Shown: positions 2,741-18,612 of the stretch, one piece after another | Layout of the letters: each line of letters begins with the position of its first letter | How positions within the stretch are numbered: position 1 is the stretch's first letter | IMG/VR virus record: IMGVR_UViG_3300028591_000077 | Direction: 5' to 3' (one strand) | Length of the DNA: 64,000 nt | Source of the DNA: a virus | Taxonomy: Duplodnaviria > Heunggongvirae > Uroviricota > Caudoviricetes | Position numbers and translations under genes: made by a program | The notes under the pieces: generated by a model | Seen by the model: only the letters and a program-made list of their open reading frames with translations | What the model was told of the DNA's origin: nothing | Database searches by the model: none

Positions 2741-2848
2741 ATGAGACATTCAGTTATTACATTACAACGCACAGCAACAACCGTAGCGACATTAGATATA
2801 GCCGCTGCGATTTTAGACGTGCAAGATTCTGGAGGAATCCACAAGTAA
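2741..2848 (+). CDS. Leader peptide 1 (35 aa, MRHSVITLQRTATTVATLDIAAAILDVQDSGGIHK)
   Basis: Follows GCTAAATT motif; codons 5-29 are only V/I/T/L/Q/R/A/D, matching the downstream tRNAs. Confidence 0.8.
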   Translation: MRHSVITLQRTATTVATLDIAAAILDVQDSGGIHK

Positions 2849-2932
2849 TTAAAACTGGTTGTTAAAACTCTTAATAAACTATCGTATAATATAATGCAGC
2901 AAACCTGCATGGTACGATAGGCTAAATCGGTA

Positions 2933-2968
2933 ACTTGTGGGTTCGCGAATAGCGAACCCTATTTATTT
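2933..2968 (+). terminator. Attenuator terminator 1
   Basis: GGGTTCGC-GAATA-GCGAACCC then T-rich tail; 2933-2944 also pairs with leader 1 end 2835-2846. Confidence 0.75.
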
Positions 2969-2980
2969 GGAAAAAAAGTG

Positions 2981-3009
2981 TTTACAAAAGATTAATTCTA
3001 TTGTATAAT
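2981..3009 (+). promoter_or_regulatory. sigmaA-type promoter (same architecture at 5221, 7678, 18624)
   Basis: TTTACA-17 nt-TATAAT, with TG just upstream of the -10. Confidence 0.8.
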
Positions 3010-3029
3010 AATACTGGAGCTGCTGAAAT

Positions 3030-3105
3030 GGTTCCTTACGTCAATTGGGAGACTATCATCCTTACAAGATGAAGGTTGCAGGTCCGAGTCCTGCAGGGAC
3101 CACCA
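3030..3105 (+). tRNA. tRNA-Val(TAC)
   Basis: Cloverleaf, CCA, T-loop TCCGAGT. Confidence 0.9.
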
Positions 3106-3110
3106 ATTAT

Positions 3111-3186
3111 GCTGGTTTAGCTCAGTTGATAGAGCAGCTCCCTCGTAAAGAGCAGGTCGGGAGTTTGAGCCTCTCAACCAGCACCA
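3111..3186 (+). tRNA. tRNA-Thr(CGT)
   Basis: Cloverleaf, CCA, T-loop TTTGAGC. Confidence 0.85.
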
Positions 3187-3190
3187 ACAT

Positions 3191-3265
3191 TGGGATGTAG
3201 CCAAGCGGTAAGGCAGGAGGCTTTGAACCTCCGATGCGCTGGTTCGAACCCAGCCATCCCAGCCA
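3191..3265 (+). tRNA. tRNA-Gln(TTG)
   Basis: Cloverleaf, CCA. Confidence 0.95.
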
Positions 3266-3499
3266 ATTAGAATATGACAGCCGAAAAGATCGCCACTTAG
3301 TAAGCTTGAATAGAGTAGGACTGATAGCTTCCGAATAAGCTATCATGTATAACATGCTGAGACAAGATTCTCAGAAGGGTTGACTTGACGCCATAGGTTC
3401 AAGCAGAGGGTACAGCGCAATTTCTACGTAGTTGTTGCCGAGGCCAAATAGTGCAGGCATGGGAAGAAAGCACTCTAAAAAATGTGCAACACCAGATAT

Positions 3500-3574
3500 T
3501 GAGAAGTCGTCAAGCGGTAAGACGCCTGTCTCTGAAACAGGTCATCGATGGTCCGAATCCATCCTTCTCAGCCA
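3500..3574 (+). tRNA. tRNA-Gln(CTG)
   Basis: Cloverleaf, CCA, T-loop TCCGAAT. Confidence 0.9.
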
Positions 3575-3665
3575 TTACCTATTTGCTCATACTAGTTGAG
3601 AGCAGACAAAAAAGAACGCTAGGTGAAACAAATTTTTAAAGGTTTAGGTTTGGAGTAGCCAATTT

Positions 3666-3750
3666 GCGGGTGTGGTGAAACAGGTAGACGCAAGGGACTT
3701 AAAATCCCTCGGCTTCGGCCGTGTCGGTTCGAGTCCGACCACCCGCACCA
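3666..3750 (+). tRNA. tRNA-Leu(TAA)
   Basis: Long variable arm, CCA. Confidence 0.95.
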
Positions 3751-3753
3751 TAT

Positions 3754-3814
3754 GGGTTTATAGTAAGCTCTGGTGAGCAAGCGCGCAAGTTCGGTTCGAT
3801 TCCGGAATAAACCC
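3754..3814 (+). ncRNA. tRNA-like RNA lacking an anticodon arm
   Basis: GGGTTTAT/ATAAACCC acceptor, GCTC-TGGT-GAGC D-like arm, TTCGG-TTCGATT-CCGGA T arm. Confidence 0.55.
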
Positions 3815-3920
3815 TAAACCAAGAATGGATTCTGGTGAATCCGAGTAGGTGAAGAAGAGTTCGAGTCTCTGAACTGTCTGGTTCGATTCCTGGCAGTGCA
3901 GGTGCAAATCCTACAACATT

Positions 3921-3995
3921 GGTCGTATAGCTCAATGGCAGAGCGGGCTCCTTATAAGGGCTAGGTTCCTGGTTCGAATCCAGGTGCGACCACCA
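3921..3995 (+). tRNA. tRNA-Ile(TAT)
   Basis: Cloverleaf, loop CT TAT AA, CCA. Confidence 0.9.
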
Positions 3996-3999
3996 ATAT

Positions 4000-4074
4000 G
4001 GGCCGATAGTTTAATTGGGAAAACACCCGCCCTGCAAGCGGGAGTTACGGGTTCAATTCCCGCCGTGTCCACCA
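4000..4074 (+). tRNA. tRNA-Ala(TGC), irregular acceptor stem
   Basis: Loop CC TGC AA, G3:U70 present, bulged acceptor. Confidence 0.6.
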
Positions 4075-4079
4075 AATAT

Positions 4080-4155
4080 GGGGCTGTAACTCAGCTGGGA
4101 GAGTGCCTGCTTTGCAAGCAGGATGTCGAGGGTTCGATCCCCTTCAGTTCCACCA
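4080..4155 (+). tRNA. tRNA-Ala(TGC)
   Basis: Canonical cloverleaf, CCA. Confidence 0.95.
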
Positions 4156-4364
4156 AGGCGAAGGACAACGCTTAATAACCAGTCTCATAAGCGAGAGTAT
4201 GGGTAACCAGTCCCAGAGGGTAGTGAAAGAGACAAGAATATAAGGAAAGAACCGGGATTACGCCTTATCGCGAATGGGCGCCCAATGAACCCCTAGAGAC
4301 GGTGAAGCTGCAGACTAGATAACGAGCTAAGGGGAAGTGTGGAGTAAATACCTTATATTATCAT

Positions 4365-4440
4365 GCCGCCATAGCTCAACTGGCAGAGCAATCGCCTTGT
4401 AAGCGATAGGTTGATGGTTCGATTCCGTCTGGCGGCACCA
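4365..4440 (+). tRNA. tRNA-Thr(TGT)
   Basis: Canonical cloverleaf, CCA. Confidence 0.95.
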
Positions 4441-4568
4441 GTTCAGATATTTCTGAATCGTGAGCTGACACGTATAAATCCGACACAAAGCCGCAAGAAA
4501 TGGGCGGCAACACTAATTAGTCGTAGGTGACGGACACCAGAACAAAATCAGCATCATATAACTAAATT

Positions 4569-4642
4569 GCCTCTTTAGTTAAATGGTATAACGAATCCAT
4601 GGTAAGGATTAATCGGCGGTCCGATTCCGTCAAGAGGCACCA
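4569..4642 (+). tRNA. tRNA-Thr(GGT)
   Basis: Cloverleaf, CCA, T-loop TCCGATT. Confidence 0.9.
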
Positions 4643-4650
4643 TTAAATTT

Positions 4651-4725
4651 GGGTCAGTAGGCTAACGGTTAAACTGTCGCACTGTCACTGCGATGTCGAG
4701 GGTTCGACTCCCTCTTGGCCCGCCA
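4651..4725 (+). tRNA. tRNA-Asp(GTC)
   Basis: Cloverleaf, GCCA end. Confidence 0.9.
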
Positions 4726-4730
4726 TATAT

Positions 4731-4826
4731 GCAGTTGTGATGCAACTTAGAAGACATCCTTGGTGATGAGCCGAGGTCAACGCAAATCGAAATAATTTGT
4801 TGAAGGTGCAAATCCTTCCATCCGCA
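4731..4826 (+). pseudogene. Degenerate class II (Leu-like) tRNA
   Basis: T arm GAAGG-TGCAAAT-CCTTC, mismatched acceptor, non-canonical anticodon loop TGATGAG, no CCA. Confidence 0.5.
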
Positions 4827-4833
4827 ACAATTT

Positions 4834-4908
4834 GGAGTCATAGTACAGCGGTTAGTATACCTGACTGTCACTCAGGAGATGAGGGTTCAACTCCCTCTGG
4901 CTCCGCCA
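4834..4908 (+). tRNA. tRNA-Asp(GTC)
   Basis: Cloverleaf, GCCA end. Confidence 0.95.
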
Positions 4909-4911
4909 TTA

Positions 4912-5036
4912 GAACCAGTACTTATTTCTTTTTCGCCTTACATGCGAGAGGTCGTTGGTTCGAGTCCAACCGTCGCGGCACGGGTGACGTGTAGCGACGT
5001 AGCTCAGTTGGGAGAGCGCTTATTACTAGTCTGGTC
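4912..5036 (+). ncRNA. Bulged-stem element 4: circularly permuted tRNA-Val(TAC) body with closed acceptor hairpin
   Basis: 3' half (anticodon, T arm, CGTCGC) at 4934-4976 precedes 5' half (GCGACG, D arm) at 4994-5020; ACCAG/CTGGT stem. Confidence 0.85.
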
Positions 5037-5043
5037 AAAATTT

Positions 5044-5119
5044 GGGGTTGTAGCTCAATTGGGAGAGCACTTGTCTGGCAGACAAGAGGTTGCGGGTTCA
5101 ATCCCCGTCGATTCCACCA
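5044..5119 (+). tRNA. tRNA-Ala(GGC)
   Basis: Cloverleaf, CCA. Confidence 0.9.
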
Positions 5120-5123
5120 ATAT

Positions 5124-5201
5124 ACCCTGTTAGCTCAGCTGGATTAGAGCGTGTGGCTACGAACCACAAGGTCGTGGGTTCGAATCCTACACAGGGTGCC
5201 A
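5124..5201 (+). tRNA. tRNA-Arg(ACG)
   Basis: Cloverleaf, CCA. Confidence 0.9.
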
Positions 5202-5313
5202 AAAAAATTATACAATACTATTTACTTTTTAGAAAAAATATTGTATAATATAATAAGCGAGCAAAAAAGATTCGCTAAATTAAGTAGTCGCAAGACAGAA
5301 AGGTAGTTAACGT

Positions 5314-5403
5314 ATGAAAAACTTGAACATGCATGCTTATCATTACGGATTTGAAGGCTATGAAGGCTTCGGTTTTTTGATGCGCTCTGACCACCGATAT
5401 TAA
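5314..5403 (+). CDS. Leader peptide 2 (29 aa, MKNLNMHAYHYGFEGYEGFGFLMRSDHRY)
   Basis: GAAAGG RBS; codons 9-23 are only Y/H/G/F/E/L(TTG)/M, matching the downstream tRNAs. Confidence 0.85.
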   Translation: MKNLNMHAYHYGFEGYEGFGFLMRSDHRY

Positions 5404-5437
5404 TTAGTAAATTCGTCGCATTGAAAATATAAAACAA

Positions 5438-5469
5438 GGGTGGTCAGATAATGATCACCCTTTAATTTT
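5438..5469 (+). terminator. Attenuator terminator 2
   Basis: GGGTGGTCA-GATAA-TGATCACCC-TTTAATTTT; 5439-5448 is the exact complement of 5386-5395. Confidence 0.85.
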
Positions 5470-5471
5470 AT

Positions 5472-5556
5472 GGGTAGGTAGGTAAGTGGCTAAAACCAGC
5501 TGTCTGTAAAACAGCCGCCTTCGGCTTCGTGTGTTCGAATCACACCCTGCCCACCA
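5472..5556 (+). tRNA. tRNA-Tyr(GTA)
   Basis: Long variable arm, CCA. Confidence 0.9.
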
Positions 5557-5560
5557 CTAT

Positions 5561-5646
5561 GGGAGCGTATTCCGTTAAGGACACGGGGCAGTCTGTAAAA
5601 CTGTTGCCATTCGGCTGGCTGAGTTCGATACTCAGAGCTCCCACCA
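5561..5646 (+). tRNA. tRNA-Tyr(GTA)
   Basis: Long variable arm, CCA. Confidence 0.85.
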
Positions 5647-5650
5647 ATAT

Positions 5651-5727
5651 GGTGTATGGAATCCGACGGTTTTGGATGCTAGTCTGTGAAACTAGATCAT
5701 TGGGTTCAACTCCCAGCATGCACCCCA
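5651..5727 (+). tRNA. tRNA-His(GTG)
   Basis: G-1:C73 pair, CCA. Confidence 0.85.
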
Positions 5728-5732
5728 GTCAT

Positions 5733-5808
<76 letters not shown>

Positions 5809-5812
5809 TTAT

Positions 5813-5889
5813 GCTCCTCTAGCCCAACTGGTAGAGGCAATGAGCTCAAACCTCATTCAGTGTCGGTCCGAATCCGACGGGGAGTACCA
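5813..5889 (+). tRNA. tRNA-Leu(CAA), short variable loop
   Basis: Loop CT CAA AC, 5-nt variable region, T-loop TCCGAAT. Confidence 0.85.
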
Positions 5890-6030
5890 AAAAGATTATA
5901 AAATACTTACCAAAGTATTGTATAATATAATAGCTTCAAAGTGCTGGAAGTTGTGGCACGCGTATTGAGAGGTTGCAAACTCGAAAATATGAGGGGTTAG
6001 GTAGGGTCTGACTGAAGCTTCCATTTACAT

Positions 6031-6116
6031 TGCGGTAGAGTGGAACGGACAATTATAAACCATCCGCGGCTCATAACCGATGGGATACCGGGTTCGACTC
6101 CCGAGTACCGCAACCA
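6031..6116 (+). tRNA. tRNA-fMet(CAT)-like, enlarged D loop
   Basis: Ends CCGCAACCA as initiator tRNAs do; loop CT CAT AA. Confidence 0.7.
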
Positions 6117-6210
6117 GAGGCGTGTTGTTTGTCAATTTAAACCTTACCTCGCGCACAAGGCGTAAAAATTGAAGGCTTAAGATGTTGTGCCAGAACAAAG
6201 CATCATCCAT

Positions 6211-6286
6211 GGCCGAGTAGCTCAGCGGTTAGAGCAGGGAGCTCATACCTCCAAGATCGGTGGTCCGAATCCACTCTCGGCTACCA
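6211..6286 (+). tRNA. tRNA-Met(CAT), probably elongator
   Basis: Loop CT CAT AC, ends GGCTACCA, T-loop TCCGAAT. Confidence 0.85.
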
Positions 6287-6363
6287 GGATATATATTCAA
6301 TTTCGCCAAGACTAGAGCACAGCCATTCATAAGGGCTGTGTAGGAGAATCCCTTGGCAACCAT

Positions 6364-6437
6364 GCAGACGTAATTCAATGGTAGAATGCCACCTTGCCAT
6401 GGTGGCTACACGGGTCCGATTCCCGCCATCTGCTCCA
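6364..6437 (+). tRNA. tRNA-Gly(GCC)
   Basis: U73 CCA, T-loop TCCGATT. Confidence 0.85.
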
Positions 6438-6557
6438 TCAATAGAATTAACAAAGGCCACGTTAATTTCAGTGAAACTCTGATAGTGGAAGACAGAATCT
6501 AAAAAGTAGCCGTCGAGCAAGCAGGCTCCACAATAAATAAACATCGCTTGCCACCAT

Positions 6558-6632
6558 GCGGGTATCGTCCAACGGTCAGGGCCTCTGCCTTCCAAGCAGA
6601 AGATACCGGTTCGATTCCGGCTACCCGCTCCA
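6558..6632 (+). tRNA. tRNA-Gly(TCC)
   Basis: Cloverleaf, TCCA end. Confidence 0.95.
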
Positions 6633-6704
6633 CCAGGACAGACAGAGATTAGGTTCTCTGTGAGGTTCTACGGCTGGACAAATCGATAAAACCAGCCAAT
6701 ACTT

Positions 6705-6778
6705 GCGGGAATAGGACAGTGGTAGTCCATCTGCTTGCCATGCAGACTACGCGGGTTCGATTCCCGTTTCCTGCTCCA
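6705..6778 (+). tRNA. tRNA-Gly(GCC)
   Basis: Cloverleaf, TCCA end. Confidence 0.9.
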
Positions 6779-6784
6779 TTAAAT

Positions 6785-6862
6785 CGTCCCGTAGACGAAC
6801 TGGTTAAAGTCATCACCCTTTCAAGGTGAAATCTGGGGGTTCGAGTCCCCTCGGGATGACCA
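6785..6862 (+). tRNA. tRNA-Glu(TTC)
   Basis: Cloverleaf, CCA. Confidence 0.9.
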
Positions 6863-6874
6863 TTTAAAATTTTA

Positions 6875-7101
6875 GAGCCTATACTTATTTCTAGGACTGA
6901 AAATCCCCGTGTCCCTAGTTCGAATCTAGGCTCTCCCACCATAGGAGCCAATACTTATTTCGGATTCCGCGGTAGCTTAAAAGGTAAAGCCCCCGATCTA
7001 TAATCGGGAGATTGTCGGTTCAAGTCCGACCCATGGCATTGTGAGTTTGGCCACTTTGGGAGAGTAGCTCAGTTGGTAGAGCAGGAGTTAATAGTTAGGC
7101 C
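6875..7101 (+). ncRNA. Bulged-stem element 5: circularly permuted tRNA-Phe(GAA) with a nested element
   Basis: 3' half with CCA at 6894-6941, 5' half GGGAGAG+D arm at 7058-7085; outer GCCTA/TAGGC stem. Confidence 0.9.
6945..7052 (+). ncRNA. Nested bulged-stem element 5b enclosing a tRNA-Ile(TAT)-like cloverleaf (about 6966-7038)
   Basis: GA GCCAA T ACT TATTTC ... AGT TTGGC C; CCCGA-TC TAT AA-TCGGG anticodon arm, T arm, no CCA. Confidence 0.8.
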
Positions 7102-7243
7102 TTTTTTATTAAAAAATATCGTATTATATAAAGAAACGAAAAATATTCGCTAAATTATTTGGTACTTGTCTTCCTTAGCGGTACGACTTAATCCAGGGAT
7201 ATTCAGGAGATATTACCGATACAAAGATTAAGCAAGAAAGATT

Positions 7244-7323
7244 TAGACTAAACTTATTTCAAAGCCTTAGTCCCACAGGGACTATATAAAAATGAAGATC
7301 AAAATTGGCCGCACAGTTAGTCA
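7244..7323 (+). ncRNA. Bulged-stem element 6
   Basis: GACTA A ACT TATTTC ... AGT TAGTC. Confidence 0.7.
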
Positions 7324-7456
7324 AAGTATTGTTCTAAAATTGTTTATAATACGCCTGAGTGGTACGACTTGTTGGAACTTATAATTAAAACCTCGTTCGC
7401 GATGCAGCTAACAAAGAGCGTCAATTAATTATAAGGAAAGATAAGCAAAAAGGGCA

Positions 7457-7529
7457 GAAACTACACTTATTTCAAATTTTTCTAATCTACACTTACCATA
7501 GAAAAATTGGCCACGACAATAGTTAGTTC
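7457..7529 (+). ncRNA. Bulged-stem element 7
   Basis: GA AACTA C ACT TATTTC ... AGT TAGTT C. Confidence 0.7.
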
Positions 7530-7562
7530 GTATTTCATAAAAAATATCGTATAATATTTATA

Positions 7563-7645
7563 GAGCTTATGCTTATTTCAAATGGTTATAGAAGGTTCGA
7601 TTCCTTCACCGTCCGCCAATCCCGGACAGTGATATTAGCTAGGCC
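7563..7645 (+). ncRNA. Bulged-stem element 8: permuted T-arm/acceptor mini-helix with GCCA
   Basis: GAAGG-TTCGATT-CCTTC-ACCGTCC-G-CCA then GGACAGT; GCTTA/TAGGC stem. Confidence 0.75.
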
Positions 7646-7735
7646 AAAAAAATATTTGTAAAAAAATTAAAAAAATATTTACAAAACAAAAAAAGTATTG
7701 TATAATATTTATGTAAGCAAGTTAAGCAAGCTTGC

Positions 7736-8342
7736 TTCGAGTGTTCTTTGAGAAAGGATTTATGTTGAACCATGTGCAGAGGGATTACCTCCTTGCATGG
7801 AAGTTGGCTAAATAACGCGATAAATTGTGGGATACTGCAATGTAAGCTAAGACCTGTATTGAAAGATACGGGTATTCCTGTCAAAACGTGATCATTGACA
7901 GGCTAAGCTGATTGTGCAACATGTTATGGTACACAAAGCAATTCTGTCTAGGCTCGTCCGATAAGAGGCTCTGGGAGCAATCTCATCCCGCCTGTGGAAT
8001 TAAGCCTGAGAAACTTAGTTCCCGGCATCTCAACCTAAGGATAGTGACGTTTTGAAGCGGCGAAAGCCGTGTATAAGAGCTGACAGAAGTACGAGTAGCC
8101 GTATGACGTCGTTCGATCAAGTATAAAATTGAAGAATGTGATTAATTTCTTCCTTGCTGAAGTTCGGTGAAAGTTGGGGGACATCAATTCCCTCTATTGT
8201 TCGGTGCTAGTCACCAATTTGTGAAGACCAAGGTCGCGCCTTGGCTCTCAGCCACAAGTTAATATGTGCGAATATGTGGAATAATAAGTGTTGTAAGATG
8301 AATAAAAGTCTCGCTTAGATCATTTCTCAAAGAATACTCGAA
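7736..8342 (+). ncRNA. About 600-nt structured ncRNA (ROOL-like candidate)
   Basis: 20-bp terminal helix 7736-7755/8323-8342, promoter immediately upstream, many internal hairpins, no ORF. Confidence 0.65.
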
Positions 8343-8393
8343 AAATAAAATGCTAAATTAATTAGACAAATGTGTCAGAAGGAGAGCAAAAGT

Positions 8394-8480
8394 ATGTTAA
8401 GATTAGCTTCTATCAACGTTAAGCCTATTAGCATTCTCAAACCAGTTTGGGAAAATTTTGACATGCTTGTAGCTCAGTAA
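8394..8480 (+). CDS. Leader peptide 3 (28 aa, MLRLASINVKPISILKPVWENFDMLVAQ)
   Basis: AAGGAG RBS after GCTAAATT; I/V/K/P/W-rich core matches the downstream tRNAs. Confidence 0.8.
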   Translation: MLRLASINVKPISILKPVWENFDMLVAQ

Positions 8481-8518
8481 AGACCGTAAGTCCGATTAAA
8501 TCAATTAGACAAAAGATC

Positions 8519-8553
8519 CCCGCAGAGACTACAAGCTCTGCGGGTTTTATTTT
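8519..8553 (+). terminator. Attenuator terminator 3
   Basis: CCCGCAGAG-ACTACAAG-CTCTGCGGG-TTTTATTTT; 8525-8536 pairs with leader 3 end 8465-8475. Confidence 0.85.
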
Positions 8554-8631
8554 CGGGAAGTAGCGTAGCTTGGTTATCGCGCCTGATTTGGGATCAGGAG
8601 ATCAAGGGTTCGAATCCCTTCTTCCCGACCA
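8554..8631 (+). tRNA. tRNA-Pro(TGG)
   Basis: Canonical cloverleaf. Confidence 0.95.
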
Positions 8632-8632
8632 A

Positions 8633-8747
8633 GAGCTCATACTTATTTCTAGCATTGGGAGCCGGTGTTTGCAGGTTCGAGTCCTGCCTCCCCGACCATT
8701 ATCGGGGAGTAGGCAAATTGGTAAAGCCGCTGTTTAATAGTTGAGCC
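8633..8747 (+). ncRNA. Bulged-stem element 9: circularly permuted tRNA-Pro(TGG)
   Basis: 3' half with CCA at 8652-8698, 5' half CGGGGAG+D arm at 8703-8732; GCTCA/TGAGC stem. Confidence 0.9.
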
Positions 8748-8767
8748 TTAAAAAATCTATTATTATA

Positions 8768-8829
8768 GAGCCTATACTTATTTCCGCCAAGAGGCAATTT
8801 CCTTTTAAGAAATCTATGATAGTTAGGCC
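8768..8829 (+). ncRNA. Bulged-stem element 10 with a Lys(TTT) anticodon stem-loop
   Basis: ATTTC-CT TTT AA-GAAAT at 8797-8813. Confidence 0.8.
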
Positions 8830-8835
8830 ATTAAT

Positions 8836-8911
8836 GGGCTCTTAGCTCAGTTGGGAGAGCATCTCCTTGACGTGGAGAGGGTCGTCAGTTCGAGCCTGGC
8901 AGAGCCCACCA
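8836..8911 (+). tRNA. tRNA-Val(GAC)
   Basis: Cloverleaf, CCA. Confidence 0.95.
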
Positions 8912-9011
8912 TTAATAGAGAATATTAGGAGAAGGAAAACTCCATAAACCCTTATAGCTTCGTTCTTAGCCAGACGTAGACTAAGATAGAGTTAAACTAA
9001 TGATACAATAT

Positions 9012-9088
9012 CCGGAGTTAGTTCAGTTTGGTAGAACACTTGATTTGGGATCAAGGGGTCGTGAGTTCGAATCTCACATTTCGGACCA
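9012..9088 (+). tRNA. tRNA-Pro(TGG)
   Basis: Cloverleaf, CCA. Confidence 0.9.
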
Positions 9089-9092
9089 ATAT

Positions 9093-9169
9093 TGGAGCGT
9101 AGCTCAGTCGGTCAGAGCGCTGTGCTGATAACGCAGAGGTCGCCGGTTCGATCCCGGCCGCTCCAACCA
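9093..9169 (+). tRNA. tRNA-Ile(GAT)
   Basis: Cloverleaf, CCA. Confidence 0.95.
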
Positions 9170-9173
9170 ATAT

Positions 9174-9247
9174 AGGGGCTTGGTATAGTGGCCGTGCCTT
9201 GGTCTCCAAAACCAATGAGGTGAGTTCGATTCTTACAGCCCCTGCCA
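9174..9247 (+). tRNA. tRNA-Trp(CCA)
   Basis: A1:U72, G73, loop CT CCA AA. Confidence 0.9.
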
Positions 9248-9252
9248 AACAT

Positions 9253-9329
9253 ACTCCCTTAGCTCAGCTGGCCAGAGCAACTGACTCTTAATCAGTGGGT
9301 CCAGGGTTCGAATCCCTGAGGGAGTACCA
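9253..9329 (+). tRNA. tRNA-Lys(CTT)
   Basis: Cloverleaf, CCA. Confidence 0.95.
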
Positions 9330-9351
9330 ATTTATGAGGAGGTCGATATTA

Positions 9352-9555
9352 ATGAGATTCAATTGTAGAGTAATCTGGGTTGATCCTGTTAAGAATCGTC
9401 GTCAGTTCACAGACGTCGGTCCAAGTTATGCAATCTTCATCGCCAAAAAGAAAGTTAGCGAAGGAATGCAAGACGTAACGATTCAAGTAACTGGCGAAGA
9501 CGGCGACGACCCTTCTGACTGTAGTTGGCCACCAATTGATGCTGAGGTGGCGTAA
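9352..9555 (+). CDS. Hypothetical protein (start revised from the track)
   Basis: AGGAGG RBS before ATG 9352; the longer ORF start overlaps a tRNA. Confidence 0.6.
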   Translation: MRFNCRVIWVDPVKNRRQFTDVGPSYAIFIAKKKVSEGMQDVTIQVTGEDGDDPSDCSWPPIDAEVA

Positions 9556-9589
9556 ATAAACAATAAGCATTAGAAATGGAGAAAAAGCT

Positions 9590-9658
9590 ATGATGAAAAT
9601 GACACTAAAACTCAAATCCAAAAAACTCAAACGTTTTCGTTGTGGCTTAATTGCTTAG
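9590..9658 (+). CDS. Leader peptide 4 (22 aa, MMKMTLKLKSKKLKRFRCGLIA)
   Basis: GGAG RBS; six AAA codons plus CTA, CTC x2, TCC. Confidence 0.8.
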   Translation: MMKMTLKLKSKKLKRFRCGLIA

Positions 9659-9692
9659 GATTCAACGTCATCTTGATTATGAATGTATTGAC

Positions 9693-9728
9693 TGCCGAGG
9701 TAATTAAGCTTATCTCGGCATTTATTAT
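9693..9728 (+). terminator. Attenuator terminator 4
   Basis: TGCCGAG...CTCGGCA-TTTATT; 9698-9709 pairs with leader 4 end 9645-9656. Confidence 0.75.
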
Positions 9729-11369: not shown

Positions 11370-11672
11370 ATGAATCTTCAAGAATTAATCGAACATGGCT
11401 ATGTAGAAAAAGTTGAAACTGAATCAACTTATTTGGGCGCTGGCTATAAAGTTTATGTAAAATTGCATAATTATTCTATTGGTAGAATTACCATTGACAT
11501 CGGTATTGATGAAAATCTTTCTGATGCGATTACTTTAATTAATAAAATGATTGAAGTTGATGAAGAAATTGGTAAGAATAAAAAGCCAAAAGAAAAGCAT
11601 ACAATCAGAAAAGCAACTGATGAAGAAATAAAAAAACTTCTTGATGATTCAAAACAAGTTTTTAAAGATTAA
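11370..11672 (+). CDS. Hypothetical protein
   Basis: AGGAG RBS, 100 aa. Confidence 0.75.
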   Translation: MNLQELIEHGYVEKVETESTYLGAGYKVYVKLHNYSIGRITIDIGIDENLSDAITLINKMIEVDEEIGKNKKPKEKHTIRKATDEEIKKLLDDSKQVFKD

Positions 11673-11690
11673 TATCGTATATTATTACAT

Positions 11691-11787
11691 AGGGGATTAC
11701 GATAATTGGCAAGTCCGTCGGTCTTCAAAACCGATCAATCCGGCTCCAACCCGGAGAGCGCGGGTTCGATTCCTGCATCCCCTGCCA
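11691..11787 (+). tRNA. UGA-decoding tRNA (anticodon TCA), Trp-like acceptor with long variable arm
   Basis: AGGGGAT/ATCCCCT-G-CCA, TCGGT-CT TCA AA-ACCGA, TCCGG/CCGGA variable stem. Confidence 0.85.
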
Positions 11788-11790
11788 GTA

Positions 11791-11847
11791 GAGCCTATGC
11801 TTATTTCAAAAACATCAGACTGCAACTCCGATTAATGAAGCTAGGCC
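11791..11847 (+). ncRNA. Bulged-stem element 11 with a Cys(GCA) anticodon stem-loop
   Basis: ATCAGA-CT GCA AC-TCCGAT; loop identical to that of tRNA-Cys at 19780. Confidence 0.8.
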
Positions 11848-11872
11848 ATTATTTTTAGAAAGGCGATAATAT

Positions 11873-12541
11873 ATGAATAAAAGAGTAAAAACGTTTCTAT
11901 TTGCAATTTTTGCCGGTATTGCCATTGGCGTCGGCGGATTGCTTTTTATTTTATCAAAAACATATATTCCAGGTAATTGGGGTAATATTGTCGGTTCGTT
12001 GTTATTCCCGGTTGGATTAATTACAATTTGCTATTGTAAATTTAATTTATATACTGGAAAAATTGGCATTGCTCCAAATAAAGGTGTAAATACTAATGAT
12101 TTGAATGTATTTGAGTGGCTAGCTTGGATTCTATTAGGCAATATTGTCGGAGCGTTTGCCTTTGGATTGTTAGTTTATCCATTCACTTTGCTTGGAGGAA
12201 GCTTCGCCGATACCGTCCATGCTATTGGGTTAGCAAGGGAAACCATGGATCCGATTTCAATGGCTGGAACATCTGTCTTATGCGGAATCTTAGTTTATAT
12301 TGCGGTTTATTTCTTCAATAAGTCTGATGAGTACTTCGGCAAAGTCGTCGGTGTCTTGGTTCCTATTGCGTTCTTCGTATTAGCCGGATTTCAGCACTGC
12401 GTTGCCAATATGTTCTATATGGCGGCTTCTGGTAGTTGGACATTGGCGTCTACTCAAGCACTAGTAGGTTGTATCTTAGGTAATTCTTTCGGTGGATTGC
12501 TTGCCAATTTGCCGGTTGTATATTTTAAAGGAGCTAAATAA
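11873..12541 (+). CDS. Formate/nitrite transporter (FNT, FocA/NirC family)
   Basis: FPVGL...LYTG and AGFQHCVANMFY motifs, multiple TM helices. Confidence 0.9.
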   Translation: MNKRVKTFLFAIFAGIAIGVGGLLFILSKTYIPGNWGNIVGSLLFPVGLITICYCKFNLYTGKIGIAPNKGVNTNDLNVFEWLAWILLGNIVGAFAFGLLVYPFTLLGGSFADTVHAIGLARETMDPISMAGTSVLCGILVYIAVYFFNKSDEYFGKVVGVLVPIAFFVLAGFQHCVANMFYMAASGSWTLASTQALVGCILGNSFGGLLANLPVVYFKGAK

Positions 12542-12789
12542 TGCAAAGATTACAAGTAAAGTATTGCAAAGGCGAAAAAGAGCTTAATGACTTCTTAATG
12601 ACCCTTGAGTTAGGTGCTGGAGAAATTAGTAAGCCACGTTTGCAAGCCATCAATTACGTTGCTGAAGTGCAGGGCAGCGGCCAAGAGTATGAAACAGAAA
12701 ATGGCACAAAGTCAACAATCAGCATGGGAAGCACAGTAATTGCAGCAGTTCAATATTTCATCAGTATTCCAGAAGAATCACACGAATAA
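12541..12789 (+). CDS. Hypothetical protein
   Basis: TAATG coupling to the upstream gene. Confidence 0.7.
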   Translation: MQRLQVKYCKGEKELNDFLMTLELGAGEISKPRLQAINYVAEVQGSGQEYETENGTKSTISMGSTVIAAVQYFISIPEESHE

Positions 12790-12827
12790 TGTGTGATTTT
12801 TTTATTTTTAATGTATAATATATAGAT

Positions 12828-13037
12828 ATGCACGAACTATTGGTTGAGATGTTGATTGTCGGTATTATTGGAATAATCAGCATAGGTGCTGGTTTATGGA
12901 TATTACTTAGAAATTGGCATGAGAAAGATTGGGAAAAACTTAGGATATTCTTTGTAGCCGGAGTAATATTCATGACATTTATGACATCGATATTCGAAAT
13001 CATATGGTTTTGTATGTATATCGGCTTACCAGTTTAA
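12828..13037 (+). CDS. Small two-TM membrane protein
   Basis: Two hydrophobic segments, promoter upstream. Confidence 0.6.
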   Translation: MHELLVEMLIVGIIGIISIGAGLWILLRNWHEKDWEKLRIFFVAGVIFMTFMTSIFEIIWFCMYIGLPV

Positions 13038-13051
13038 AGGAGAATGGAATT

Positions 13052-13168
13052 ATGATAACTATATTGGCAGTTTATGGTATCGGACTAGGGATTTTGAACA
13101 TTTTAACCCTTGGAATTCTATTCTATTTGAAATTTGGTCAAAAATTATTGGCTAAATTAAAACGGTAA
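13052..13168 (+). CDS. Small membrane peptide (38 aa)
   Basis: AAGGAG RBS, hydrophobic. Confidence 0.5.
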   Translation: MITILAVYGIGLGILNILTLGILFYLKFGQKLLAKLKR

Positions 13169-13182
13169 AATATTTACCATTA

Positions 13183-13263
13183 CATAGAAAAAAAGCACAA
13201 CCACAGTGATGTGGCGTCGCAAAGCTATAGGGCCTTGGAGGAAGGCAGCCAGTTGCTTCTGTG
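13183..13263 (+). promoter_or_regulatory. c-di-GMP-I (GEMM) riboswitch
   Basis: GCACAA-CCACA GTGA TGTGG-CGTCGCAAAGCTATAGGGCC...GGCAGCCAGTTGC matches the GEMM core; lies in the 5' UTR of the operon. Confidence 0.8.
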
Positions 13264-13305
13264 AGTTAATCATGGAAGTTTTTTATTTATAAGAAGGAGA
13301 AAACT

Positions 13306-13923
13306 ATGAAATTAAGAAACAAATTAGCAGCTATCACAGCTGCAGCAATGTTAGCATTTACTGGCGTTGGTTTTGCTGCATGGACATTTGCTAATGAAAA
13401 ATCAGCTAATGTTGGTGGAGACAATGTTGTTACTTGTGCAGTTGAAACAAAGAACTTAGTTATTGATGAAGGTTATACTAAATTATATTTAATTTTTGAT
13501 GCGCCAGCAGCTGGAACTACTGGTTCATTAAAGGCTGGTGAAGGTATTTTCTTTGCAACAGATAAAGAGCCAGATGCTGAAACCGGATTATATACTAAAG
13601 TTACATCTCTTACATTAACTGGTTCATTTGAACATACAGATAATGATGCTCATTACAACCATGCAGTAAGTTATACTTTTGATTGCACACCTACTAATAC
13701 TTTAAGTGCTACTTATGTAACACAAACAGCTGCTGGAAGCTTCGATGCAAATGTAACAGGAGCAACTTCAACTTTTACAGATGTTTCAACTGTTTACACA
13801 CTTCCAACATTTGATTATACTGCTGCGGTTAAAGCTTACAATCATGCGTCAGAAATGTCTGCTATGATTACTTCTTTAAATGACTCAGAAGTATCATTTG
13901 CATTTACGTTTAATATTGACTAA
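13306..13923 (+). CDS. Secreted protein with SipW-type signal peptide (TasA/camelysin-like)
   Basis: MKLRNK...GVGFAAWTF N-terminus; adjacent to signal peptidase. Confidence 0.6.
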   Translation: MKLRNKLAAITAAAMLAFTGVGFAAWTFANEKSANVGGDNVVTCAVETKNLVIDEGYTKLYLIFDAPAAGTTGSLKAGEGIFFATDKEPDAETGLYTKVTSLTLTGSFEHTDNDAHYNHAVSYTFDCTPTNTLSATYVTQTAAGSFDANVTGATSTFTDVSTVYTLPTFDYTAAVKAYNHASEMSAMITSLNDSEVSFAFTFNID

Positions 13924-13938
13924 TTAAGAGGTTAGTTT

Positions 13939-14757
13939 ATGAATTCAATTACGATTATAACAATAGTCGTAGTTGCACTCTTAACTGTAGTTATCTTTGG
14001 ATTAGCTTGGCTAGGTTATAGCTCTTGTTTAAAAAGCTATAAGATGGAAGTTGACCAAGGAAAGCATGATGCTGAAATATTCAAAGAGTATCATTCAAAA
14101 AAGAAAAACAAAGGAGGACTAATTGGACTTATTGGTTCATACTTAGCCCTCCTTGCTTTATCTGGGCTATTCATAACTGGAATAGTTTATAAAGCTAACG
14201 GTGAAAACTTCACCATCAATAATCAAACTGCCCTTGTGATTAAATCAGGCTCTATGTCTGAATTCTATGATGATGAACTTGCCGAACAATATCAATTACT
14301 ACATTATGATCCATCACTTCAATTTAGTGTAGGAGATATCTGTGTTTTTGAAAAAGTATCAGATGATACTAAGTTAGCTAAGGGTGACGTCTACGGCTAT
14401 AAATATAAAGATATTATTATCACACACAGATTAATAGATGAAACAGAAGACGGATTCTATAGATTTAGGGGCGATAATAATCCAGTTGCAGATCAATTAC
14501 TAATAAAACGAGAAAATATTGTTTATCATTATACTGGTAATAAGGTTCCTGGACTTGGTGCTTTTGTTTTATATGCTCAATCATATTTTGGTATGTGGTC
14601 AATGGCTGGCATTGTAGGCATAACTATTAGCTCTGAAGTGGTCTATCATAAAATAGATAAAATCAATAAAGAGCGTAATGAGCTTCTTGATCCTGGGTTC
14701 AAGTTAGAGCCTCCAAAACAAAAAGAAAGAAAGCGAGGTAAGAAGCATGAAAAGTAA
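13939..14757 (+). CDS. Signal peptidase I, SipW-like (S26)
   Basis: VIKSGSMS, GDI, ITHR, FRGDNN motifs, TM segments. Confidence 0.85.
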   Translation: MNSITIITIVVVALLTVVIFGLAWLGYSSCLKSYKMEVDQGKHDAEIFKEYHSKKKNKGGLIGLIGSYLALLALSGLFITGIVYKANGENFTINNQTALVIKSGSMSEFYDDELAEQYQLLHYDPSLQFSVGDICVFEKVSDDTKLAKGDVYGYKYKDIIITHRLIDETEDGFYRFRGDNNPVADQLLIKRENIVYHYTGNKVPGLGAFVLYAQSYFGMWSMAGIVGITISSEVVYHKIDKINKERNELLDPGFKLEPPKQKERKRGKKHEK

Positions 14758-15685
14758 ATTTTTATTGTTTCTAGCCGGTTTATTCGCTATTACTGCTTTA
14801 TTTGGGACGACTTATTCTGCTTGGGCTTTTACAAATACTACTGATGTAACCAATAATGTTCAAGTTGAAGTTCCTACTTGGACATTTGGTGACCAAGGTC
14901 TTGCCAAAATCGAAAATATTTCTGGTTTAAGCTATTTAACAGCTGAAAAAGAAGAAACTATTACGCAGGGAAGCACTGAGGCAGTTAGATTCACAAATAC
15001 CGGTGGAACTCATGCAAGAGACCATATCTTCTATGTCGATTTAGACCAAGATTATGATTTATACGATATAGCTACTTGTAAGATTGAATTTGATTACTAT
15101 CATACTTATAAGAGAGAACAAAAAGATAAAGGTTTCCCAAAACTTCAATTATTCCATGATAGTATTGGCAGAGGAGCGGCTCAAGGCGGCGATGATACAA
15201 TAACTGAAATCGCACCTTATGTTGTTACAAACATCGATGAAGATTGGTGGCATTTGGAATATTATATCACTTCTATGTGCCCAACAATTGCCGACCATCA
15301 AGATAAGCCACAAAATAACTATAAAGTAAATCGTATTAAATTTGCTGATAGAGGAGTTTATGACTACGCTGATGTAACTGGCTGGTTTGTTATGGACAAT
15401 TTAATGATTACAAATGAACCAGGGGCTAGATTAGGTCTATTTAATAGAACTGCCGGCGATACAGTTGGAAAATTCTTCTGGTTTAAGGTTGCTTGGTCTG
15501 GTGATCTACATTCTTGTATTCTTACAACAAGTGACCCAAGTTTGGCTGTTTGGGATGATGAATCTACAAAGAGCCCATTCTATGTTAAACTATTAGCAAA
15601 AGGTCAAGTTGTTATTACAGCTACCCTTGAAATTGGAAGCAATCACGAGATATTCACAATTTCTAATACAATTACAATAAATTAG
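14747..15685 (+). CDS. Secreted protein with SipW-type signal peptide
   Basis: MKSK...GTTYSAWAF N-terminus. Confidence 0.6.
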   Translation: MKSKFLLFLAGLFAITALFGTTYSAWAFTNTTDVTNNVQVEVPTWTFGDQGLAKIENISGLSYLTAEKEETITQGSTEAVRFTNTGGTHARDHIFYVDLDQDYDLYDIATCKIEFDYYHTYKREQKDKGFPKLQLFHDSIGRGAAQGGDDTITEIAPYVVTNIDEDWWHLEYYITSMCPTIADHQDKPQNNYKVNRIKFADRGVYDYADVTGWFVMDNLMITNEPGARLGLFNRTAGDTVGKFFWFKVAWSGDLHSCILTTSDPSLAVWDDESTKSPFYVKLLAKGQVVITATLEIGSNHEIFTISNTITIN

Positions 15686-15699
15686 TTGTATAATATAAT

Positions 15700-15869
15700 G
15701 TAACAGCCACACATTGCCGCCGTGGTCGGAGGAGCGGATTGATCCCCGCTTAGTACTGGATAAGGGCGGGTCTAGCCAACCTGTGCACGAAATTCTGGAA
15801 ATACAAAAGGCGATCCATAATGCAAATGTTACAAATAAAAAGAGCTTATTAAGCTCTTTTTTAATTTTT
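15700..15869 (+). ncRNA. Unidentified structured small RNA plus terminator
   Basis: Own promoter, GTAACA/TGTTAC end pairing, GC-rich hairpins, AAAAAGAGC-TTATTAA-GCTCTTTTT terminator. Confidence 0.45.
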
Positions 15870-15888
15870 TTACTGTATAATAATATAG

Positions 15889-16160
15889 TTCCCCTGTGTC
15901 GGGGGTCCTGGTGTTAAAAAGTGGTCGTCATTGCCGGCCCGGCTGCCTCAGTAAGTCGCGGTTACTGATATAACCCGGTGTCCTTGCGGACTGTTTCCAG
16001 GAATAACGAGCGCGAGCCCACCTAGTCGGAGAGTCAGACTGCAACACCTGACGTTAAATCAATGTTCCTCCGTGAATAGGCAGTGGGAGAAGAGTAGGAT
16101 ACAAATGACAGCGTGCCCGCAGAAGAAACTAAGCCTTAAAAACGTCGAAAGACGTTTTTT
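15889..16160 (+). ncRNA. Unidentified GC-rich structured RNA plus terminator
   Basis: Own -10 TATAAT, non-coding, ends in AAAAACGTC-GAAA-GACGTTTTT. Confidence 0.45.
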
Positions 16161-16362
16161 ATAAACTGGCTAAAAATATTGGCTAAATTTAAGATGCAGA
16201 ATAATTTAATAAAAAAATCTGCTAAATTATGTGTACAATATGAAAAATATATTGTATAATATGTAAAGCAAGTGAGAACTTGCGAATTAATCTTTGAAAT
16301 GATCGCCTTCATGGCCGCTTCCTGTCCTAAGTATGACGTTAAACTGCTAGATAATTTAGGAG

Positions 16363-16584
16363 GTGCCTATGAAGTATTACGTGTTAGATGGCGAAGTCAA
16401 TCGCCAGCCTATCAAGGAGAAGATGTTTGCTACTAGGGCTGCTGCTGAAAAAGCAATGGAAGGTATTCTCTACAGAGAAAATCTCCAAGTCCAAGAAGAC
16501 AGATTCCCTTCTAAGCACACCGAAGAATTCGTGTGTGACAGATGCTCTAGATTCTTTGTTCGCAGAGTTGTCTACGGTGAATAA
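16363..16584 (+). CDS. Hypothetical protein
   Basis: AGGAGG RBS. Confidence 0.7.
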   Translation: MPMKYYVLDGEVNRQPIKEKMFATRAAAEKAMEGILYRENLQVQEDRFPSKHTEEFVCDRCSRFFVRRVVYGE

Positions 16585-16589
16585 TCTAT

Positions 16590-18300
16590 AGCAAAAGTCA
16601 AGGCACAAACTAATTGGCCCGGAAACGGGAAAATGGAACTTCCGAAATCGTGGAGGATACAGAGACTAGCGATCAAAGTTAGTTAGAAAGTCTTGACATT
16701 CTTAGGTAGTTTCGCGTAAGCGTTTCTATATTTAGAGCTTAAAAAGCACTCACAGAGGAAAACACCGAAATGTTCCAAAGGAGCTGACGAAATCCTAAGC
16801 GTCTATAAACAAAGTTTAGTGGAGCTTTATGAGCGAGTGGTTGATTACCCGACGTTCTACTCTATGGAGTATTAAGAGGTTGGTAGGGGTTAAAGTTGTC
16901 TACCTATAATCACAAAACAACTGCTTCCTTGGCTAATTTAGTCCGGTAGGAAGATTATCAAAAGAGAGGTTAAGCATTCCTCCCCACATTGTGGTATTCC
17001 TTAATTGGATTCCTTCGATAATTTATTATCACTTATTGCTTGGCGGGCTAGGCAACCGCCCTCCTTCTGTAACCTAGCTTATGCAGAACGGTATTTTCTT
17101 GGGATATACTTTAGGTATGTCCTCTGATGTGGCCGACCCAACGGGCAGTTTGAGGTGCGACTCCTCAATTGGTCTCAAAAAGCCCACGCAGCAGTAACCA
17201 GGGCTAATACTAAGACGTCAAAACGTGAAAGAGCCTGCTGCACATATAATTTAAATAAGCTTACGGGGGCTTGTCCGGAACGGGCGACGAGATGGTTAGA
17301 ACTACAGGTCAGGGAAGCAGCTGTAACACCATACGTTCCGCTAAGGTTTGTGAAAATATTAACCCAGGTGCTTGCTTGCAAGATGCTGACTAACACAAAC
17401 TATATGACCATGATTTAAATTATATCATTGACTGGGGAATTATTCCGAGCCCCTATGAATCAAAAAAGATCGGCGTCGAAGCAACGAAAGCCGCCATGTT
17501 GTCCGTGCACGGCGAGAGAAGGAACGGTCTAACGCAGCTGTCTACGGGATTGATTCGCCCGTATAGATGCCACTGAATACCCAAAGCTGGGGCTGCTGAT
17601 AAAGTAAAGGTCGACGACGTGGTTTGCGGTAGCTGACTTAGACTCAGCCTTAGACCAAGTATCGTGATCAGTCGACGGAAGCACGACAAAAACCGCATAT
17701 ATTGATATTATCTATAGCAATATAGTTAATATATCAACTTCCTGGCTTGAATAGGTGAGATGTTTGACTAGGAATTATTTGAACAGTTAGCAACTGGATA
17801 AAATTGCTCAATCTCACAAATAATCTTTTGAAAAGGAAGCTTAATTGCACCTATGGTTAGTCTTTCCATCCTTAAAAGGCATTAGTTCCACCATACACGG
17901 TACTGAATGTTGTTTGATTAGTAGTTACATATAAGGTTTGTTATAGACTACTTTGCGAGTTTCAATTAAAGGTGCCAACCACTAAGGTTGACAATAACCG
18001 CCTTATCATATGAAAATCAAGTCAGTGGACTACCTCCGCCTTATTAAGGTAATTAACCGAACTTAGTATTTGGTATAGATGAGTGACAAAGCCAGTAGAA
18101 CTCCAGGATGGGTTGATAAGTGTATATGAAAGAATGTGGCTAAGCACTTCCCGCTTATTGTAAAACTGACCCAAGTAAATCTAAGAACCTGCTAGTGAGG
18201 TTGTGCTCACATTTACTGTTTTATAAGCGATTGGCATTTAGTCTCTGTTGACATCGCTTACAGCAAGGGAACAAATCCGCAAAAACCCTAGCCACATATT
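16590..18300 (+). ncRNA. 1.7-kb non-coding structured region, probably several large ncRNAs
   Basis: No RBS-led ORF, GC higher than background, many hairpins. Confidence 0.5.
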
Positions 18301-18367
18301 TAGTTAAAAATTGGTAGAAATACCGTATAATATAATATAGAATAAAGCAAAGGAGCTTAAAAGTTAT

Positions 18368-18550
18368 ATGTTTGATATCTTAGTTAATGGTCAATTAGTC
18401 GCAATTGCAGCAGAAGGTGTTACAAAGATTTTTTGTAATGCTCTTATTAATGCACTTCCAAGTGAGATTTCAATTACCTCAAGAAGACATGTTGAACCTG
18501 CCCCACAAGCGCCTGAAACACCAGAAACTGAAGAAAGTTCTGCCAAGTAA
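18368..18550 (+). CDS. 60-aa protein, probable leader peptide 5
   Basis: AAGGAG RBS; TGT/AAT/AGT/GAG/TCA/AGA codons followed by a strand complementary to the downstream terminator. Confidence 0.65.
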   Translation: MFDILVNGQLVAIAAEGVTKIFCNALINALPSEISITSRRHVEPAPQAPETPETEESSAK

Positions 18551-18576
18551 TTAAATAAGTTAATAAGGCAAATTAA

Positions 18577-18612
18577 GGGTAGGTTCAATATAAAGAATCT
18601 ACCCTTTTATTT
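18577..18612 (+). terminator. Terminator 5 (possible attenuator)
   Basis: GGGTAGGTTC-AATATAAA-GAATCTACCC-TTTTATTT; 5' arm pairs with 18494-18503. Confidence 0.75.

Follow-up and report, generated by a model that had tools for sequence, protein, structure and literature searches.

Phage tRNA genes are usually viewed as constitutive supplements to codon usage or as decoys against tRNA-targeting defences, and to our knowledge next to nothing has been described of their regulation. Among the closest described systems are the multivalent leaders of enterobacteria (thrL and ilvL of ilvGMEDA; also trpL, hisL, leuL, and pheL), which act on genes for biosynthetic enzymes; the pheM leader of Escherichia coli, which attenuates the phenylalanyl-tRNA synthetase genes pheST in a cellular system concerned with a single amino acid; and the T-box riboswitch (RF00230), which senses the status of a tRNA. 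Bacilli carry His leader peptides ahead of hisS/hisZ paralogues, as reported by Naville and Gautheret (2010; PMC2965389). The DNA considered here is a stretch of 64,000 nucleotides (nt), called the window when its full length is meant, from the Caudoviricetes virus record IMGVR_UViG_3300028591_000077 in IMG/VR. Between positions 3030 and 21799 it holds 42 tRNA genes, all on the + strand, together with a tmRNA (10871–11261, +) and a ROOL RNA (7746–8331, +; 210 bits in Rfam). Several tRNA clusters are preceded by a short open reading frame (ORF) and an intrinsic terminator. It is likely that three of these elements, at sites 2, 3, and 4, and probably a further one at site 1, are ribosome-mediated (leader-peptide) transcription attenuators of tRNA genes that sense decoding speed.

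Leader codons and the tRNA clusters behind them

An earlier, sequence-only reading had placed short ORFs at 2741, 5314, 8394, 9590, and 18368, each with its own terminator ahead of a tRNA cluster, and all five ORFs (O1 to O5, at sites S1 to S5) and terminators were found at these positions. The leaders, paired strands, promoters, terminators, and tRNA units of the five sites, as located below, are all on the + strand. A tRNA cluster was defined mechanically, as the tRNAs from one + strand terminator to the next, and codon matching was scored by strict wobble against the tRNAs between an ORF's own terminator and the following one.

At site 2, a promoter region (5221–5283) with a sigma-70-like promoter at 5221–5249 and a GCTAAATTAA motif at 5274–5283 precedes the 29-codon O2 (5314–5403), which has a Shine-Dalgarno (SD)-like AAAGG at about 5299–5303. 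The terminator (5436–5471; 11-bp stem and T-tract) is followed directly by tRNA-Tyr, the first member of cluster 2 (5472–7039: Tyr-gta twice, His-gtg, Phe-gaa, Leu-caa, Met-cat twice, Gly-gcc, Gly-tcc, Gly-gcc, Glu-ttc, and Ile-tat). Three of these calls, for the second Tyr, for the His, and for the first Met, come from relaxed ARAGORN; of the three, Rfam backs the second Tyr (by a 30-bit match to tRNA-Sec) and the His but not the Met. At site 4, the 22-codon O4 (9590–9658) has an SD sequence GGAG 8 nt upstream and carries six AAA Lys codons plus CTA, CTC, and CTC within codons 3–14. Its terminator (9693–9728; 11-bp stem and T-tract) runs up to the tRNA-Lys that opens unit 4 (9729–11353: Lys-ttt twice, two small genes, Leu-tag, the tmRNA, and Leu-aag); the next terminator-like site after this unit is at 12489 and the next strong one at 12771. 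Site 3 begins with a GCTAAATTAA motif (8352–8361) 20 nt past the end of the ROOL RNA. The 28-codon O3 (8394–8480; SD sequence GGAG 9 nt upstream) is followed by a terminator with a 9-bp stem, seven of its pairs G-C, and a T-tract (8519–8553), and then by cluster 3 (8554–9329: Pro-tgg, Val-gac, Pro-tgg, Ile-gat, Trp-cca, and Lys-ctt), with tRNA-Pro starting at 8554.

The GGAG or AAGG sequences of O2, O3, and O4 lie 8–13 nt upstream of the start codon, as they do in real genes of this phage. At these three sites the first tRNA begins 8–10 nt past the U-tract with no promoter between terminator and tRNA, so that the Tyr-Tyr-His-Phe-Leu, Pro, and two Lys tRNAs depend on read-through. The whole elements are self-contained and 160–230 nt long.

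Site 1 is built somewhat differently. A promoter-like GCTAAATTAA motif (2729–2738) ends 3 nt before the ATG of the 35-codon O1 (2741–2848), and between the terminator (2939–2968; 8-bp stem and T-tract) and tRNA-Val there is a sigma-70-type promoter, TTTACA-N17-TATAAT, with 11/12 consensus positions (2981–3009). Cluster 1 (3030–5201) comprises Val-tac, Thr-cgt, Gln-ttg, Gln-ctg, Leu-taa, Ile-tat, Ala-tgc, Thr-tgt, Thr-ggt, Asp-gtc twice, Val-tac, Ala-ggc, and Arg-acg. A second promoter-like site (2862–2890) lies between O1 and the terminator, inside a strong hairpin (2878–2920); transcripts from it (2897–2968) would be terminated RNAs of about 70 nt.

The codon match is strongest for O2, with 20/28 codons matched (expected 0.29, p = 4e-6) and a longest run of 15, codons 9–23, all read by cluster 2 tRNAs. 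In O1, 22/34 codons match (expected 0.32, p = 1e-4); codons 7–23, a run of 17, and 25–29 are read by cluster 1 tRNAs. O4 has 9/21 (expected 0.10, p = 8e-5; longest run 4), O3 8/27 (p = 0.06; longest run 3), and O5 10/59 (p = 0.19; longest run 3). The proposal that each ORF consists largely of codons for the tRNAs of its cluster therefore stands for O1, O2, and O4, is marginal for O3, and fails for O5. Its finer detail, that the agreement extends to isoacceptors, was borne out: TTA occurs three times before Leu-TAA, TTG twice before Leu-CAA, and AAA six times before Lys-TTT, and, as a further fit of the same kind, ATC/ATT and GTT precede Ile-GAT and Val-GAC. In the core of O3 (codons 7–19), 10/13 residues are Ile, Val, Lys, Pro, or Trp, and its other frames give only one or two matches.

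These matches are specific to pairs of ORF and cluster. None of the off-diagonal pairs is better than p = 0.05 at the codon level; at the amino acid level the own cluster is the best match for every leader, and off-diagonal p values do not fall below 0.2. Read in either of its other two frames, the same DNA loses the codon match. With 42 tRNA genes nearby and three frames to search, some matching ORFs could arise by chance, and O3 and O5 taken alone do fall within what chance would give. O1, O2, and O4, however, each rank first for their own cluster among the 386 small ATG ORFs of the window, and a blind script that scores small ORFs no more than 250 nt upstream of a tRNA returned O2, O1, O4, and O3 as its top four in the window. 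Since the position of the stop codon relative to the pairing strand (see below) also recurs four times, coincidence is a very improbable explanation of the set.

Alternative pairings, relatives, and the proposed switch

The sequence-only reading had further described, in each ORF, a strand of 10–12 nt complementary to the terminator. Such strands were found at all five sites, with 8 to 15 pairs. At S1, 2835–2846 pairs with 2933–2944 (12 bp, one of them G-U); at S2, 5386–5395 with 5439–5448 (10 Watson-Crick pairs, shuffle p = 0.004); at S4, 9644–9656 with 9698–9710 (13 bp including G-U, p = 0.002). The S3 pairing is the weakest of these four: 8465–8472 with 8529–8536 gives 8 Watson-Crick pairs (p = 0.006), extendable to a duplex of 8460–8479 with 8521–8541 (-17.9 kcal/mol). 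The S5 strand (18489–18503, with 18577–18591; 15 bp including G-U) lies 45 nt before the O5 stop codon. In duplexes between the 120 nt upstream and the 5' half of the terminator, the energies at S1 to S5 were -19.3, -19.9, -12.8, -17.4, and -24.7 kcal/mol, against a mean of -8.1 kcal/mol for 15 other + strand terminators used as controls.

At S1 to S4, the arrangement of these parts is the same. The final four or five codons make up the pairing strand, which overlaps the stop codon (at S2 it ends 6 nt before it); its partner is the 5' arm or loop of the terminator, so that antiterminator and terminator are mutually exclusive; and the matched codons lie upstream, with at most five unmatched codons in between. 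At S2 to S4, the segment with the SD sequence and start codon pairs with distal codons of the ORF in a hairpin whose loop holds the matched run. The folds of all four leaders are much more stable than those of shuffled sequences (z from -2.5 to -4.4, the latter for S3). Equilibrium folding with ribosome masks cannot tell the states apart, and the only informative fold is that of the transcript ending at the terminator loop, as a co-transcriptional intermediate. In this fold the antiterminator forms at S1, S2, and S4.

Pairings of this kind could also belong to genuine switches whose sensor is not codon-specific, responding instead to general translation activity or to a protein, small RNA, or tRNA that binds the leader in the manner of TRAP or a T-box. 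Three findings would fit such a sensor: the significance and covariation of the alternative pairings do not depend on the codon argument; the ribosome-free intermediate already contains the antiterminator, so that presence or absence of translation would suffice; and S5 has strong pairing without a codon match. What such a sensor leaves unexplained is the match of each leader to its own cluster in one frame only, and the confinement of substitutions in O1 to the decoded codon set (see below). No T-box (RF00230) or other known Rfam leader was matched at E ≤ 1 in 2000–22000, which also speaks against it, and we regard a sensor of this type as unlikely.

Comparison with relatives is most extensive at S2, where four relatives from four studies and one further contig (L124) represent five lineages. 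Across these, the first 27 codons of O2 (81 nt) show a single change overall, the synonymous TTC>TTT, whereas each lineage has 1–5 changes in the 45-nt 5' untranslated region and 3–9 in the 40-nt spacer before the terminator. The paired strands and the stems of the terminator show no change at all, the loop differs, and at the end of the ORF the stop codon and the one or two codons before it move by a few bases. That synonymous sites are frozen agrees with selection for RNA structure and for particular codons, not with selection on the peptide.

A homologous S4 leader was found in three short contigs, among them L034, whose neighbouring 67-amino-acid (aa) protein is 84% identical. The L034 leader keeps its SD sequence and has an ORF of 26 codons with five AAA, a 12-nt indel being in frame. 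The hairpin between the start region and the distal codons is preserved through several two-sided compensatory changes; the antiterminator pairing is kept with a T:A to C:G covariation, and the same terminator base is compensated in the 3' arm, so that all three S4 helices show compensatory changes. Downstream of this leader are Lys-ttt, Lys-ttt, and Lys-ctt. At S1, the lineage of L015 and L120–L123 (neighbouring protein 96% identical) has eight nonsynonymous changes and one synonymous change in O1, and the order of the downstream tRNAs is that of the window. Of the seven matched codons that changed, six were replaced by other members of the set decoded by cluster 1; the matched run still spans 17 codons, six of which carry substitutions (simulation p = 0.02). 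The only variant seen at S3 is T>C at 8537, in the 3' arm of the terminator, in a strain 98–99% identical to the window. In the relative L006, a syntenic ORF of 43 codons before tRNA-Val was considered and rejected: it shares the promoter motif, a terminator, and a -10 element, but has no codon match.

Site 5 (18368–18652), which the sequence-only reading had counted as a probable fifth member, can be set aside as a codon-sensing attenuator. It consists of a conserved gene for a small protein of 60 aa (18368–18550), that gene's own terminator (18575–18606), and then a strong promoter for the tRNAs, TTTACA-N17-TATAAT (18624–18652). Homologues of O5 are 71–95% identical with conservative replacements, and in L037 and L038 the DNA has many synonymous changes with the amino acids kept, including TCA AGA AGA to AGC AGG AGA. 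The terminator after O5 has been replaced and the 15-bp pairing is not kept; the -10 element between the terminator and tRNA-Arg is conserved.

This result invites the same explanation for the other sites, namely ordinary small genes or incidental ORFs next to ordinary terminators, with the tRNAs expressed by leaky read-through or from unrecognised promoters and a codon likeness of no regulatory role. S5 proved to be exactly that, S1 has a promoter of its own past the terminator, and distant relatives lack the design. Against this, O1 and O4 are not conserved as peptides, the synonymous sites of O2 are frozen as in no normal protein gene and unlike those of O5, pairing between the 3' end of each ORF and its terminator is much stronger than at the 15 controls, and the three helices of S4 covary in L034. 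Ordinary genes are therefore an improbable account of the four leaders, and somewhat less probable than a sensor blind to codons. Taken together, conservation of the leader or covariation was seen in relatives at S4 (in L034), at S2 (in five lineages), and at S1 (in L015 and L120–L123), though not at S5 or in distant relatives. The reading of the sites as attenuators is thus supported at S2 and S4 by statistics, anatomy, and comparison, reasonably at S1, and weakly at S3, and it is refuted at S5 as far as codon sensing is concerned.

If sites 1 to 4 work as ribosome-mediated attenuators, transcription would start upstream of the leader at the sigma-70-like element and/or the phage-group GCTAAATTA motif, or, at site 4, would enter by read-through from cluster 3. 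A ribosome would load on the short ORF, whose middle part is a run of codons that the tRNAs encoded past the next terminator can read, and whose last four or five codons and stop form the strand able to pair with this terminator at its 5' arm and loop. With fast decoding, the ribosome would reach the stop codon and cover this strand while the polymerase is still making the terminator, so that the hairpin forms and transcription ends 8–10 nt before the first tRNA. With a stall in the run, where a cognate tRNA is scarce or uncharged, the strand would instead pair with the terminator arm and allow read-through into the tRNA genes. For a leader without a ribosome, the antiterminator would be free and the folds predict read-through. 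The tRNAs made would relieve the stall, giving a codon-set-specific negative feedback on the phage tRNA supply. Translation of the leaders, its coupling to the polymerase, the direction of the switch, and the physiological trigger are inferred; starvation or host anticodon nucleases as that trigger are speculation. The tRNAs would presumably be grouped to suit each sensor. More tentatively, the sites could form a panel of codon-set-specific stalling sensors, each inducing its replacement tRNA block when the host pool for those codons collapses, for example through anticodon nucleases (Lys-UUU at site 4; Tyr/His at site 2). Such a panel, if real, would be both an inducible counter-defence and a tRNA homeostat; no regulation of that class has been described for tRNA genes.

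Several observations weigh against attenuation by leader translation. The equilibrium fold of the complete leader always favours the terminator hairpin, whether or not ribosome masks are applied, which means that a switch could only work kinetically; and at S3 the upstream hairpin dominates the intermediate fold and the antiterminator does not win, in a leader whose strict-wobble match is also only marginal. O1 has no SD sequence and would need leaderless or SD-independent initiation. The strong promoter at 2981–3009, which is kept in L015 and L120–L123, bypasses the S1 attenuator, which could therefore only modulate read-through from upstream, adding to constitutive expression; control there would be partial. 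In the relatives X5 and X9, what comes after the S2 terminator is the SD sequence and start of a protein gene (MILTTN) and not tRNA-Tyr, and in X14 the match to the window likewise ends at 5470. Genes for HNH homing endonucleases (149 and 159 aa; L122:1564–2013 and L123:1608–2087) are polymorphic insertions inside the tRNA arrays of close relatives, which makes a mobile insertion after the S2 terminator plausible, and the gene in X5 and X9 may be one. IMG/VR relatives with 48–71% identity in a neighbouring 651-aa protein (G001–G005) have tRNA arrays in another order and no comparable leaders, so the design would be young or fast-evolving in this lineage. The host, finally, is probably a member of the Bacillota, judging from a formate-tetrahydrofolate ligase 50–55% identical to Bacillota enzymes and from the ROOL RNA, which is a Bacillota and phage RNA; in that phylum, transcription and translation may be uncoupled and leader-peptide attenuation is rare.

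Two sheep metatranscriptome contigs identical to the window touch these sites: one (4384–5478) ends at the boundary between the S2 terminator and tRNA-Tyr, and the other (8292–8674) crosses the S3 terminator. Both are weak evidence, as their depth is low, DNA carry-over is possible, and they cannot show RNA ends.

The surrounding tRNA region

The source is an uncultured phage with a large genome, from the rumen of sheep and cattle. Its sequence is present in several rumen runs, and the strain 98–99% identical to it was found on a 237-kb scaffold. A near-identity search of the INPHARED phages returned tRNA matches only, so there is no close relative in that public phage collection, and scans of IMG/VR with a 173-aa protein, the 67-aa protein, and the S2 terminator pattern found nothing. 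Elsewhere in the window are genes for topoisomerase II subunits, collagen-like fibres, formate-tetrahydrofolate ligase, and other proteins, all in the standard code. Stop codon recoding was considered, as the gene caller had used TAG = Q on L034, and was ruled out: in the window the stop codons are TAA 29, TAG 6, and TGA 2, with long ORFs under code 11. Auxiliary metabolic genes are those for the ligase itself (58277–59899; 714 bits), for an F420-ligase-like protein (24266–25456), and, within the tRNA region, for a formate/nitrite transporter family protein (11873–12541).

Among the tRNA calls, one at 11691–11787 has the anticodon TCA and was called as selenocysteine (SeC), possibly an opal suppressor; it is also present in the relatives G001 and G003. 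An odd call of 99 nt, 'tRNA-His(atg)', lies at 4730–4828. Many of the gaps between tRNAs (3266–3499, 3751–3920, 4156–4364, and 5890–6210) resemble non-coding structured RNA, and a short motif, (a/c)CTATACTTATTTC, is repeated at 6875, 6950, 7566, 8640, 8783, 19125, and 63270, beside tRNA-like fragments in inter-tRNA gaps. The ROOL RNA sits downstream of a strong promoter (7678–7706). A sheep metatranscriptome contig over 7763–8271, within it, has a depth of about 594, against 4–31 elsewhere in the region, and sequencing adapters at both ends, which suggests that ROOL is an abundant discrete RNA.

The motif GCTAAATTA(A/T), often written tttatttGCTAAATTATatgat, has 14 + strand copies in the window, at 2729, 5274, 7149, 8352, 13151, 16221, 26031, 26716, 27816, 29562, 33512, 44407, 61338, and 63177. 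Most are directly after terminators and 5' of a gene or RNA, and the motif is also present in the relatives L006, G005, and L034; it resembles a promoter or 5' leader element specific to this phage group. At 13185–13279 there is an aptamer resembling the cyclic di-GMP (c-di-GMP) riboswitch class c-di-GMP-I-UAU, at 50 bits below the gathering score of 65.9; the order there is GCTAAATTAA motif, aptamer, terminator (13255–13279), and a 205-aa gene. One control terminator, at 63292–63315, pairs with an upstream strand (63236–63246; 11 bp, -21.4 kcal/mol) and is the only control that resembles the leaders. No codon-matched ORF was seen in 63177–63325, where a further RNA switch or a small RNA could lie.

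Comparison with described attenuators

A full-text literature search found no published description of control of this kind for tRNA genes. In all described leader-peptide attenuators the downstream genes are for amino acid biosynthesis, transport, or synthetases; as the genes behind the leaders here are tRNAs, these elements do not belong to a described attenuator family. If the reading is correct, the phage gauges decoding capacity for each codon set and makes only those tRNAs that are in short supply. Ribosome-mediated attenuation would then extend to RNA genes of the translation apparatus and to viruses, and the terminator-delimited grouping of tRNAs in large arrays would have an explanation.

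The T-box shares with these sites the sensing of tRNA status and the switch between terminator and antiterminator, but it works without an ORF, its specifier codon and T-box sequence making direct contact with the tRNA. The leaders of hisS/hisZ in Bacilli show that classic leader-peptide attenuation exists in the Firmicutes, the probable host phylum, although there it is cellular, concerns a single amino acid, and acts on protein genes. The pheM leader is likewise an attenuator of a component of the translation apparatus, differing in its synthetase target. The nearest resemblance in design is to the enterobacterial multivalent leaders, which also have a short ORF rich in several regulatory codons, a terminator before the structural genes, a mutually exclusive antiterminator set by the position of the ribosome, and a stop codon beside the antiterminator strand. 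The contrast lies in a phage-encoded system with tRNA targets, whose output would feed back directly on decoding, in matched runs that cover up to nine amino acids, in an upstream pairing partner that includes the SD sequence and start codon, and in a ribosome-free fold that predicts read-through and not super-attenuation.

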